Source: Acinetobacter phage SH-Ab 15599
Length of the DNA: 64,000 bases
Strand: one strand, 5' to 3'
Sequence record: MH517022.1
Shown here: piece after piece, positions 12,662-16,576 of the stretch
Numbering within the stretch: the stretch's first letter is position 1
How the letters are laid out: the number at the start of each line of letters is the position of its first letter
Program-made: the position numbers and the translations under genes
The notes under the pieces: model-generated
Databases searched by the model: none
Seen by the model: only the letters and a program-made list of their open reading frames with translations
Told to the model about the DNA's origin: nothing

Positions 12662-14138
12662 CTAGAAAAGGGAGTTAAGGCTGAATGAAGTCGGTGCCTT
12701 AGCCTCCCATTTGATTGCGACTAAAAAGTTTGTAAGTGGATTGATAAAACATTTACTGAATGCAGCATCTTTATCAATGAACTTCTCAAGATTAAACTCC
12801 TTCGGTAGTTGATCATCATACGCAATAACTTCCATACCAAACGGTGAGCCTTTTCTTAAAGGTAACACGTAGTATTTATTGCCGCTACGAAGTGGCATAA
12901 TTTGCGGTGCATCAACCTTAGTTAATAAGGTATTATGATTTATCGCCCCTTTAACATGATATGGGGTTCCTTTAACCGCAACGCCGTTACTGAGATAATC
13001 TTCAATATTGTTGATATTCTGAGCCGCCCCGTATTCATTGATATTACGAGATTTCATGAATTCAACTTCACACTTTGCTACAAAATCATGTAGTTCAGTT
13101 TTCTTCTCTTCAAGAGCCAATTGATAGCCCGTTTTCATCCACTCACGGCAGAACATTGGGTAGTTAGACTTGCGAGCCTCTAAACCAACGATTTTAAGCT
13201 TAGGAGTGGCGTAGCGCACGCCTTCGTTATCAGTTAATAACATAGCGTAACGCTTCTTGGTTGTAAAGATTGCTACCATAGCAATAGCTTCACGTTTGAA
13301 GAACAAAGCGTTGATTGGACAGTTATATGATGAAGCTAGTTCTTCAGCCCATTGAATGTATAGAGGTTCAATGGTTGTAGTCATCAATTCATCAAGCTTA
13401 TCTGTAATCTCAGAATCTGATAATTCGTCCCATCCAGAAGCCTTAACCACACCTTTGAACTCAGTATAGATCGAGTCAGTATCTCCATAGAAGCAATGGT
13501 CACCTTCAAGATTATAAGTTTTGTTGATCCATTCATTCAACTTAAACATAATATGTCGAGTTGAACATTGACCCGCAGTTGTAATAGCTTCAGCAATACG
13601 GATTTCAAAGTGGTCGGCGAAGTTTTCATTTGCAATCGCGCCATAACCCGCGTTTGCAGCAATCTTATGTGCGTGTTGGTTTGAGTCTCCGTTTTGGATT
13701 TTTGTTTCCCAAACATCATATTCTTTGTAATACGCTTCTGTCTTCTCTAATTGCTCATCCAAGTATTTTTTCTTGAAGGATTCAAGAGAACGTTCATCGT
13801 CTTTCATTGCCTTTTTAATGACCTTACGCGTATCATATAGGTCTTTGAATACACGGCGCAACAATGAAGGTTTTTCAGTCTTAAACATTGCAAGGTTTGG
13901 AGCCATACAGACTTTCAAACGTTTGAGAGTTTGGAACTGATATGGGGCTTCAAAGTAGATGTCCCAAATACCTTTACGCTCACGGAAACGTTGAGCATAT
14001 AAACGGGTGTATTGGGTTTGTTCTTCTTCCGGAATATCATCCATCTCTTGAGCCAGAGCGTCAAGAATCTTCTCTGTAATACCCCAAGGTACAAGCGTCT
14101 CAATACCCATGTTGAATTGTTGTGCCATATGCGGATAA
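12662..14138 (-). CDS. DNA polymerase (family B, gp43) exon 2: the rest of motif A, then the fingers, palm and thumb domains
   Basis: GYPHMAQQFNMGIETL aligns to T4 [16 protein letters not shown]. Further on are HKIAANAGYGA (the Kx3NSxYG region), CFYGDTDSIY (motif C) and KKRYA. The 5' boundary is inferred from a frame-preserving splice. Confidence 0.75.
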
Positions 14139-15311
14139 CCTATGTGTTCAGATGAGTTCGTGATTCTCACCTCGGAATTACATCCAGCTGTATGTCGCCA
14201 TACAGAGCAGACTATATCATCACCCACGTTATACGTTTGGTACGCTGTTGTAAGTAGCGCAGATGAGCTATACTCACCGTGTCTCCCGTTTCCATTTAAG
14301 CCATACATTTCAGGCACCCACACTTGGCTGTACTATGTCTTGCGACTGTCTAGTCGTTGAACCTTTCAGAATTTCTTTGATCTTTACAGTATAAACAGAA
14401 ACATCTAATCCTTTGAGATTTAATGGTCTGACGTAATTGGAAGTGAGAGCGCCGCTGTTAGTAAAAATCGCTTTACCATCAACATGAGCCTTTCTATAAA
14501 AATCGAACAATTGTTCTTCTGTCCAATTCTTAATTTCTTCTTTCTTACGTTCAAGACTAGCTTTGAATTTGTTCTTTCCTTCTTCAGATTGCATAGGGTT
14601 GTTTGTAGAGAACCCCTTGCCATCTAAATGATGAACTAATTCTCCAGAAGTATATCTTGGATCATTCTTTTCAGTCATGAATATATTCCCATCTTTGTCT
14701 TTTACAACAACTCGACCAGTCATATATTCTTTACTTTTTTGAACGATAGCTTTAGCAGTCTCTGCATCAGCGCCCATATATTTCTTCCCTTTCATATCAA
14801 GGCGTTGTACACCTTTCTTTGAAAGACTAATCTTTTGCTTCACATCTTCTCTTTTAGAAGGATTGTTTTCTCCGCTGTTTAGTTCTCTAGCTAATTTTCT
14901 TGCCGACTCACAATATTCAGCCCCATCTCTGGTTGTTACCATAAGATGATAGGCATATCCTGTAGATTGAGTCTTTGCACCTAGCATAAGAAGTCTATGT
15001 GCTTCCACGTGTTCTAATATAGATAATTCTACAATATTCCACTTGGCGTTTCTGTACTCATAAAAATCGCAGATTGGTAAAATATGATGGCGCTCAACAA
15101 CATCAGAACCTTTAGCAGATTGAATGTATTCAACGTATTGCTCTAGCAACGCGCTGTCTCCATTCTTATAAGTCTGCTTCAAAGCATCTAACATCTGTTT
15201 ACCGTTCATAATCACTAACTCTGACTTGGCTGCTGATTGTCTCAGTGAGATTTCCCAGCAATTAAAGAGATTTTCATTGTGTTATTTCTAACACAAGCCC
15301 CCTATATGTTA
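14139..15311 (-). mobile_element. putative group I intron in gene 43, carrying an HNH homing endonuclease ORF
   Basis: A P1 helix forms between the exon end GCCCU and the intron GGGGC, with a U-G wobble at the splice site. A P2-like hairpin UUGUGUUA-GAAA-UAACACAA follows immediately. The intron ends in G. Joining the exons restores the in-frame motif A: DANAL|YPHMAQ. Confidence 0.55.
14310..15215 (-). CDS. HNH homing endonuclease (intron-encoded)
   Basis: HHILPICDFYEYRNAKWNIVELSILEHVEAHR is the HNH motif. Downstream are basic, NUMOD-like repeats. Confidence 0.8.
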   Translation of the reverse strand: MIMNGKQMLDALKQTYKNGDSALLEQYVEYIQSAKGSDVVERHHILPICDFYEYRNAKWNIVELSILEHVEAHRLLMLGAKTQSTGYAYHLMVTTRDGAEYCESARKLARELNSGENNPSKREDVKQKISLSKKGVQRLDMKGKKYMGADAETAKAIVQKSKEYMTGRVVVKDKDGNIFMTEKNDPRYTSGELVHHLDGKGFSTNNPMQSEEGKNKFKASLERKKEEIKNWTEEQLFDFYRKAHVDGKAIFTNSGALTSNYVRPLNLKGLDVSVYTVKIKEILKGSTTRQSQDIVQPSVGA

Positions 15312-16576
15312 AGGGCATTTGCATCGCTAGACATTACATTTTCATAACGCCCTGGGGTCACCTCTTTAACATAACCTCCGGCATAGTCTGGTTTTGAGTT
15401 TACGCGTGGACGAATTTCAGAAAACTCATTGTTACGCGCCCCGTAACCATACATGAGATATTGCCAAGGTAACACGGTTGCATTTGTATCATCTGGATTA
15501 CAGTGATACAAGAATGCTAATGTATACGCCAGTTGCAATAGTTTTGTTTTCTGAGCAATACGCAATACCAAGTTTACGTCGTGAATGTTATATCCAATAT
15601 AGTTTTGGTAATCTTTGATATAAAATTCTGTTAAGCTTGAGAACTCGCTATGATCAACCTTTTCTTCTTTGAGATAATGTTGAGCTGCAGTATTCAGCTT
15701 GTTGTTATCCAATTCAATAAAGCCGTGTTTTGCTACACTTTCTTTTAAGTCTAGGTTTGAAATACCTGAGATTGTAAATGTAACCTCTTCACCATATTTG
15801 CCGTTGAAGGTACGTTTGCGACAGTAACCATGAGGTGAAATACGATTCAGAATATCTCGACCCAACAGCTTATCAATGCGGTTACAGAAGTACGCAATAT
15901 CAAACGTATCACTGTTCCAACCTGAGATGTAGTCATATTGGTGGGATTCATACTGATCTACAAAATCATACAGAAGATCAATTTCATTATCATATCCAAC
16001 ATAGACAATGTCTTCTGGCTTGACCGTCTTACGAACTTGCTCAGGTAATTTGTTTACATCAAATGTACCCAAATCATGGCCTTGGAAATGCTCTAGACCT
16101 AACACATAGAACTTTTCAGTGAATGTATCATATGTTGTAATGGCTGTAATAGGGTATAAGGCTAATGCAGGATCAGGGAAGGGGCCAGGCTGAATTTTAC
16201 CGTCAGCAGTAATTGTACCAGATTCAACCTCAATATCGACCAATGCCCCTCTGATATATTTCATATCAAATTTGATTTCTTTTTCAGGGTAATGCTCTGC
16301 TGAGTATTGAGCTAATGGGTTATCAATACCGTAGATTTTGAAGTTGGGGATGTTCTTCATCTGCTCCATCCACTCTTCCATAGCGTAGTTGTTATCAAAC
16401 ACTATGCGTTCAAGAGGGATACCATTCAGAGACTTATAAGGACTATCAGCATTTGTAGATACGGTATACAAAGAAGGCTGAAAACTAATTTCACGCATCT
16501 TTCTCACGCCGTCTTCAACATAGCGCTCAAGAATGCGGTCTTTCTGTTTTGTTAGGTTGGTATAAAAGCGTTGCAT
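15312..16576 (-). CDS. DNA polymerase (family B, gp43) exon 1: N-terminal and 3'-5' exonuclease domains up to the start of motif A
   Basis: ALVDIEV is Exo I, YNIHDV is the Exo II region, and YAGGYVKEVTPGRYENVMSSDANAL leads into motif A. The ORF as called runs 3 more codons to 15302 (NI then stop) inside the intron. Confidence 0.8.

Follow-up and report, generated by a model that had tools for sequence, protein, structure and literature searches.

A probable mobile T4 td-type group I intron within motif A of the replicative DNA polymerase gene of Acinetobacter phage SH-Ab 15599

The replicative DNA polymerase (PolB) gene of Acinetobacter phage SH-Ab 15599 very probably contains a mobile, T4 td-type group I intron, 1,173 nucleotides (nt) long, which interrupts the catalytic motif A and carries an open reading frame (ORF) for an HNH-family homing endonuclease. 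The window analysed is the whole 64,000-nt stretch of record MH517022.1, and the polymerase locus corresponds to window positions 12662-16576, where the ORF list shows three consecutive ORFs on the minus strand. Their products match exactly the GenBank proteins AXF41430.1 "DNA polymerase", AXF41429.1 "hypothetical protein SHAb15599_00065" and AXF41428.1 "DNA polymerase"; the GenBank record of the phage thus presents the polymerase as two genes, with no intron annotated. The same two-polymerase mis-annotation is present in nACB2 (OQ032512), and the intron is mentioned neither in the nACB2 paper nor in the 2026 paper on the thymine hypermodification of SH-Ab 15599. The lineage of this phage is related to the Ackermannviridae and is not T-even. 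In both SH-Ab 15599 and nACB2 the annotation would be corrected to a single polymerase gene that is spliced and a homing endonuclease encoded by its intron, a correction that matters for pangenome and phylogenetic work using PolB as a marker, which a mis-split gene affects. Since SH-Ab 15599 is studied for therapy and for DNA hypermodification, it would offer a convenient test system for splicing and homing.

Reading frames and predicted splice junction

The ORFs of the locus, and the exons, intron and endonuclease gene assigned to it, are as follows:

16576..15302, minus strand: PolB N-terminal ORF, 424 amino acids (aa), ending in ...VMSSDANALNI and a stop; Pfam DNA_pol_B_exo1
15215..14310, minus strand: endonuclease ORF, 301 aa from the first GTG, 299 aa from ATG 15209
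14323..12662, minus strand: PolB C-terminal ORF, containing ...GYPHMAQQFNMGIETL; Pfam DNA_pol_B
15312..16576, minus strand: predicted PolB exon 1; covers the N-terminal and exonuclease domains and ends with the second base of the motif A Leu codon (D-A-N-A-L)
14139..15311, minus strand: predicted group I intron, 1,173 nt, td-like (IA2-type), from UAACAU... to ...AUAGG, terminal G at 14139
12662..14138, minus strand: predicted PolB exon 2; opens with the third Leu-codon base, continues as YPHMAQQFNMG... and covers the palm, fingers and thumb
14310..15209, minus strand: putative HNH homing-endonuclease gene, 299 aa, ATG at 15209, stop at 14312..14310, in the loop of helix P6a

An earlier reading made from the sequence alone (the original prediction) had the polymerase frame stop at ...VMSSDANALNI and resume downstream on the same strand, and both were found at these coordinates. 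Joining 15312 to 14138 removes 1,173 nt, keeps the frame and gives a single ORF of 913 aa with one terminal stop. The 5' junction reads GCCCU^UAACAUAUAGGGGGC (the caret marks the splice site) and is followed by the perfect hairpin UUGUGUUA-GAAA-UAACACAA; the 3' junction reads ...GAACACAUAGG^UUAUCCGCAUAUG, the insert ending as ...AUAGG^UUAUCC with G as its last base. The predicted ligated exons read ...GAUGCAAAUGCCCU^UUAUCCGCAUAUGG..., i.e. ...GCCCU^UUAUCC..., and the insertion point separates the first two bases of the motif A Leu codon from the third (D-x-x-S/A-L^Y-P). G14139 is the only G that yields an in-frame Leu-Tyr-Pro junction.

The spliced protein aligns without gaps through the join to RB69 gp43 (vmssdanalyphmaqqfnmgietl, E=2e-96), with RB69 residues 1-431 aligned on the exon 1 side, and T4 gp43 matches it likewise (E about 1e-96). 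Seven uninterrupted PolB homologues from metagenome assemblies (P0001-P0007) read ...DANALYPHMAQQ... or near variants and show no insertion or deletion at the join; P0001 is 75% identical to the spliced protein, P0002 68%, and the others range down to 36%. Motif A reads D-A-N/Q/E-A/S-L-Y-P-H/N... in these homologues. Two contigs with an intron-less PolB gene, L006 and L007, show the syntenic context of UvsY, an exonuclease, a gp19-like gene and PolB. The in-frame join DANAL-YPHMAQQ of the original prediction is therefore borne out, and the junction agrees with the homologues that lack the insert.

The third base of the Leu codon, which is supplied by exon 2, differs between intron copies: U in the window, A in nACB2, LIMEstone1 and CRW-SP2, G in ECD7 and two Vibrio phages, and C in contig L015. 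The codon is always CUN over the nine intron copies examined, and such synonymous variation is predicted by RNA splicing at exactly this phosphodiester. Within the Acinetobacter clade, intron-containing alleles show GCC-CU, with perfect P1 pairing, and intron-less alleles show GCG-CU or GCU-CU.

RNA core, covariation and Rfam matches

The helices were delimited by comparison with the T4 td intron and then mapped to window coordinates:

15316..15311 with 15302..15297, minus strand: P1, GCCCU and intron U1 paired with the internal guide GGGGGC
15296..15277, minus strand: P2, 8-base-pair hairpin with a GAAA tetraloop
15270..15265 with 14287..14282, minus strand: P3, 3' strand GGGAGA
15260..15255 with 15236..15231, minus strand: P4
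15250..15240, minus strand: P5 hairpin
15230..15228 with 14363..14361, minus strand: P6
15224..15221 with 14369..14366, minus strand: P6a, whose loop holds the endonuclease ORF
14355..14351 (GACUA) with 14214..14210 (UAGUC), minus strand: P7
14346..14337, minus strand: P7.1, GUC-GCAA-GAC
14329..14299, minus strand: P7.2, AGCC.../...GGCU
14281..14225, minus strand: P8, branched
14205..14188, minus strand: P9
14185..14174, minus strand: P9.1 hairpin
14171..14151, minus strand: P9.2 hairpin, covarying
15221..15270, minus strand: 5' core, from the P3 5' strand to the P6a 5' strand
14139..14369, minus strand: 3' core, from P6a'/P6' to the terminal G

P1 shows six of six pairs; its U(15312)·G(15301) wobble, located at the 5' splice site, is invariant in 8/8 introns, and the first intron nucleotide covaries with the opposite guide base (U-A, A-U, U·G) across seven motif A introns. 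The P3/P7 pseudoknot is present, P7 (GACUA/UAGUC) and its J6/7 and J8/7 flanks are identical to those of T4 td, and the extra helices typical of IA2 introns, P7.1/P7.2 and P9.1/P9.2, are all found. Over its last ~80 nt the intron shows 84-86% identity with T4 td as well as with many other introns from phages. The elements named in the original prediction, namely a P1 formed by GGGGC and GCCCU with a U·G wobble, a perfect GAAA-tetraloop hairpin as P2 and a terminal G, are all present, and the search that it proposed for P3-P9 and a P7 guanosine-binding site located both, in a core backed by covariation.

Covariation was counted formally on a core-only alignment of eight introns, and a separate helix table was compiled by hand over nine; a MAFFT alignment of the whole ORF-deleted introns was set aside, since it misaligned P3' and P7.2 of the Acinetobacter clade. 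The manual table shows essentially full pairing with many double substitutions. Over the eight aligned introns, 88.3% of cells are paired, against 74.8±1.2% in shuffles (0/500), pairs changed on both sides number 27 against 16.1±2.3 (0/500), and the covariation score is 0.457 against 0.201. When the partner strand is slid by ±1-3 columns, pairing falls to 38-44%; the structure was derived from these same sequences, so this last control is somewhat favourable, and the double-substitution counts are the stronger evidence. P3 and P9 are each 100% paired, with compensatory changes at five of their six pairs, and P7 is invariant. P2 shows compensatory changes in nACB2, L015, LIMEstone1, ECD7 and a Vibrio phage, the changes by which the P2 hairpin of the window is supported. 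A third intron of the Acinetobacter clade, the 1,143-nt L015/L016 variant from wastewater metagenomes, adds further compensatory changes with respect to the window:

P2: U-A to C-G
P6a: UCAG/CUGA to UUAG/CUAA
P7.1: GUC/GAC to CCC/GGG
P7.2: AGCC/GGCU to CACU/AGUG
P8a: GGUGAG/CUCAUC to GGUAUG/CAUACC
P8b: GCGCU/AGCGU to GCGCA/UGCGU
P10: exon 2 UUAU with intron AUAG, against CUAC with GUAG

Both ends of the insert match the Rfam group I intron model RF00028 locally, 15321..15104 (P1-P6) with 28.8 bits (E 6e-5) and 14416..14188 (J6/7-P9) with 31.8 bits (E 7e-6), and they are the sole non-tRNA Rfam matches in the window at E<0.05. This is the outcome of the covariance-model check proposed with the original prediction, each half scoring below the gathering threshold. 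At that threshold the window shows only three tRNA genes, located on the plus strand within 1.5 kb (50746-50819, 51532-51604 and 52153-52223, with 73.8, 72.6 and 41.0 bits, respectively). The low intron scores are explained by the model, which cannot span the 851-nt ORF insertion: the proven ORF-carrying T4 td intron reaches only 36.9 bits, and the introns of nACB2, ECD7, LIMEstone1 and JSE likewise stay below the gathering score, which is passed by Churi (ORF-less; 89.6 and 85.3 bits) and G2285 (83.6 bits).

Endonuclease ORF and alternative readings

The ORF in the P6a loop likely starts at ATG 15209 rather than at GTG 15215; GenBank uses this ATG as the start, and it is conserved in nACB2. 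The complete HNH endonuclease ORF of the original prediction (14310-15215) consequently keeps its family and probably loses its first two codons. Its product matches phrog_12434 "HNH endonuclease" (E=5e-61, residues 7-271) and phrog_655 "homing endonuclease" (E=4e-16). Residues H41, H42, I43, P45, N58, H67 and H71 are invariant over twenty homologues, which also have a DPRYxSGEL motif in common, and among 16 homologues two match PF01844 weakly (best E=0.026) and three match NUMOD3 (best E=3e-5). An AlphaFold model of the N-terminal 96 residues (predicted local distance difference test, pLDDT, 93.8) places the HNH motif residues on a predicted strand-strand-helix unit. Sequence and profile searches of the PDB with the endonuclease retrieved nothing relevant, and a tblastn search of the window with the endonuclease as query revealed neither a paralogue nor a second intron.

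At its 3' end the ORF extends ~50 nt beyond P6': it crosses J6/7, the 5' strand of P7 and P7.1 and stops in the P7.2 loop. The last 19 codons, which overlap the RNA core, are 89-95% identical to nACB2 at all three codon positions, and residues 284-299 of the protein model have a pLDDT below 50; judged by this pattern, the endonuclease tail is a read-through of conserved RNA and not conserved protein. The overlap is kept throughout the family, nACB2 and L015 included, and in LIMEstone1 and ECD7 the core is translated in a different frame (...VQRLSK). It suggests a possible coupling or competition between translation of the endonuclease and folding of the ribozyme. A stronger form of this idea, in which ribosomes translating the endonuclease unfold the core, so that splicing and endonuclease synthesis exclude each other on each transcript, and in which the endonuclease recognises DNA bearing the diaminopropyl-thymine hypermodification of this phage, is speculative and more doubtful than probable.

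From the sequence we infer self-splicing, endonuclease activity and its target in the following way. The exon end GCCCU of the pre-mRNA would pair with the internal guide GGGGC to form P1, with U·G at the splice site, and the core would fold into P3-P9 with the P3/P7 pseudoknot. An external guanosine would attack after U15312, and the freed exon would then attack after G14139, the last base of the intron, with a short P10 (intron AUAG with exon 2 UUAU) as guide. The ligated mRNA would encode a single polymerase of 913 aa whose motif A (DANALYPH) is intact. In a mixed infection the 299-aa HNH-family endonuclease would cut or nick intron-less polymerase alleles near the Leu codon, and recombinational repair would then copy the intron in.

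Several observations weigh against this interpretation. The literature searched gave no experimental splicing or homing for any motif A intron, that of the window included. Neither half of the intron attains the RF00028 gathering score of 50 bits, and lineage-specific expansions are present in P8 and P7.2. Since the catalytic core is overlapped by the endonuclease ORF, translation of the latter could interfere with folding. The endonuclease of the window shows no match in Pfam or in NCBIfam, and structure searches gave no significant HNH match, with HNH-type nucleases appearing only at E 1-10; the fold is therefore held as unconfirmed.

These missing Pfam and structural matches also favour an alternative in which the intron splices and its endonuclease is defunct or repurposed, the element being vertically inherited and immobile or reliant on another nuclease. 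Introns with degenerate endonucleases are known, and the JSE copy has lost most of its ORF (PMC2993671). Against it, the window, nACB2, L015 and L017 all have an intact ORF, with all HNH motif residues conserved; the ORF body, with a ratio of nonsynonymous to synonymous substitution (dN/dS) of 0.16 with respect to nACB2, is by this measure under purifying selection; and close relatives differ in the presence or absence of the intron. A defunct endonuclease is accordingly considered improbable.

A split polymerase is far less probable still. In this case the insert would be non-splicing or decayed, and chains of 424 aa and ~488 aa would assemble as do 43A and 43B of Aeromonas phages 44RR and 25. 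Split T4-type polymerases do exist (PMC2988022), GenBank lists AXF41430.1 and AXF41428.1 both as "DNA polymerase", and an ATG is present at the M of YPHMAQQ. This is the only ATG available to a second cistron, and its use would drop the conserved Tyr-Pro-His of motif A; the break falls inside the motif and would leave the catalytic Asp on the other chain, followed by two junk residues. No convincing Shine-Dalgarno sequence is present, and a promoter and terminator scan gave nothing above background, picking up P1 as a "terminator-like" hairpin. The Leu third base varies synonymously across the junction, and the full group I core is kept by compensatory substitutions. It is this conserved, covarying core, together with the loss of Y-P-H from the only available start, that disfavours the split gene, and the preference of the original prediction for an intron is upheld.

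Restoration of the polymerase at the protein or ribosome level, by an intein or by translational bypass, was rejected as next to impossible: the exon 1 frame stops two codons into the insert (AAC AUA UAG), and the endonuclease occupies a separate frame with its own start, within an insert that holds a ribozyme core. In favour of this option, archaeal PolB genes with an intein at motif A are known; we know of no precedent for a bypass of 1,173 nt. A free-standing endonuclease between two polymerase cistrons was also rejected.

Distribution and comparison with known systems

The group I intron assigned here belongs to a td-like motif A family that is widespread, spanning the Straboviridae, the Ackermannviridae and the Acinetobacter cluster, the last of which it adds as a new host lineage. 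Endonuclease homologues of 35-39% identity were found by tblastn in 52 phage genomes. The motif A position is identical in all five distant records inspected (LIMEstone1, ECD7, Vibrio 1.244.A, CRW-SP2 and vB_VmeM-32), Coodle shows the same layout from its annotation alone, and homologous pairs of intron and endonuclease occur at the same codon in Vibrio and Salmonella phages. In vB_VmeM-32 (L013 2031-7008) PolB is annotated as five fragments, with a motif A intron that has a long P5 extension and apparently with further interruptions. Between the window and nACB2 the exons are 70.9% identical, the intron 78.9% and the intron cores 86-96%. Four more metagenomic copies show the same architecture and synteny: L015 2897-4039, L016 560-1702, and L017 and L018 2909-4081. 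The L015/L016 variant has no 24-nt P7.2 insertion and shows a clean P7.1 (CCC-GCAA-GGG). The gene calls of L015 split the N-terminal polymerase exon in two (1635-1982 and 1998-2906), perhaps owing to a frameshift or an assembly error.

Natural "empty" homing sites are present in the intron-less contigs L006 (2506-5250, GCGCT^CTACCC) and L007 (2577-5318, GCTCT^TTACCC). The intron-containing nACB2 and the intron-less L006 are 90.4% identical over the polymerase exons. Taken together, the family would illustrate clearly how introns home into an invariant active-site sequence and pass from one phage family to another. The original prediction had regarded a polymerase intron as notable, the known introns of T4-like phages being those of td, nrdB and nrdD; this view is outdated, as introns of gene 43 have been reported (PMC2993671, PMC3296691).

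Next to the polymerase gene, window 16655-17164 on the plus strand shows an ORF of 169 aa, encoded on the opposite strand between the polymerase gene and a gene for a PD-(D/E)XK-type exonuclease. Its counterpart is annotated as "tail tube" in nACB2 and gives a weak Phage_T4_gp19 match in L007 and L015; the replication module would then contain a gene of structural type.

Among the closest systems are those of LIMEstone1 and other Ackermannviridae (Coodle, CRW-SP2, Vibrio 1.244.A). They share with the window the insertion point D-x-x-S-L(CU)^(N)-Y-P, the td-like core (5' core TAATTGCTGG...CAGCAGCC, P7 CAACGACUA and GAUAUAGUCU) and a homologous endonuclease (35-39% aa identity) in the P6a loop, with the ORF running into the core. 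The intron of the window differs in a branched P8 that is ~50 nt longer, in an expanded P7.2, in an endonuclease with only ~35% aa identity to theirs, in an endonuclease tail that reads the core in a different frame, and in its host lineage, the Acinetobacter cluster with nACB2. I-LimII, at motif A, and I-LimIII were named "putative introns" of the LIMEstone1 polymerase gene, in an account that gives no RNA structure, splice sites or splicing data (Adriaenssens et al., 2012; PMC3296691). LIMEstone1 (L008 5402-6244) and Vibrio 1.244.A (L011 ~6133-6250) also show a second polymerase-gene insertion further downstream, and in LIMEstone1 this insertion encodes I-LimIII opposite to the polymerase strand, which is unusual for an intron-encoded gene.

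The T4-related Krischvirus ECD7 has an intron at the same motif A codon with a homologous HNH endonuclease. The JSE intron is that of ECD7 with most of the endonuclease deleted (99.4% identity), located between equivalent polymerase fragments, and it was described as a putative intron of gene 43 with a truncated endonuclease (Petrov et al., 2010; PMC2993671). Both phages differ from SH-Ab 15599 in belonging to the family Straboviridae, and their introns differ from that of the window by compensatory changes in P3, P6 and P9.2; their status in the literature is "putative".

Further polymerase introns, those of Aeromonas phage 25, G2285 and 4HA13, are group I introns at conserved motifs, with 3' cores 84-86% identical to that of the window and with ORFs that are different from its ORF or absent. 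Two of them lie at other sites: the G2285 intron (a Mosigvirus) is in gp43 near motif B (...LYGALGN^VWFRYYD), and that of 4HA13 (Chaseviridae) is in a family A polymerase (PolA). For gene 43B of phage 25, a self-splicing intron without an endonuclease is recorded (Petrov, Ratnayaka and Karam, 2010, as cited through PMC2993671 and PMC2988022). In G2285 (L004 286-4087) the intron ORF looks GIY-YIG-like by eye, and the record states "unable to determine intron/exon boundaries".

Churi, a phiKZ-like Pseudomonas phage, has an intron core that lacks an ORF and is similar to the intron of the window at both ends (~79% identity within a stretch of 273 bp). Unlike the window intron, this core is in the gene region of a non-virion RNA polymerase subunit, and the HNH nuclease gene is just upstream and not in P6a. 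Churi has tandem group I introns above the Rfam threshold (L002 2478-2723 and 2991-3311) adjoining the HNH nuclease coding sequence, near a gene fragment of the non-virion RNA polymerase beta subunit, and the first of them is the closest ORF-less relative of the window core.

The td intron of T4, with I-TevI, has the same layout as the window intron: P1-P2, P3-P9, P7.1/P7.2, P9.1/P9.2 and an ORF in P6a that extends at its 3' end into the core. The two introns are 84-86% identical over P7, J8/7 and P9-P9.2. The td intron differs in its host gene, thymidylate synthase, and in its endonuclease, which is of the GIY-YIG type. The stop codon of I-TevI is the UAA of J6/7 just before P7, and the ORF of the window ends ~50 nt further, in P7.2; the overlap of ORF and core is thus known in principle from td and is longer in the intron of SH-Ab 15599.

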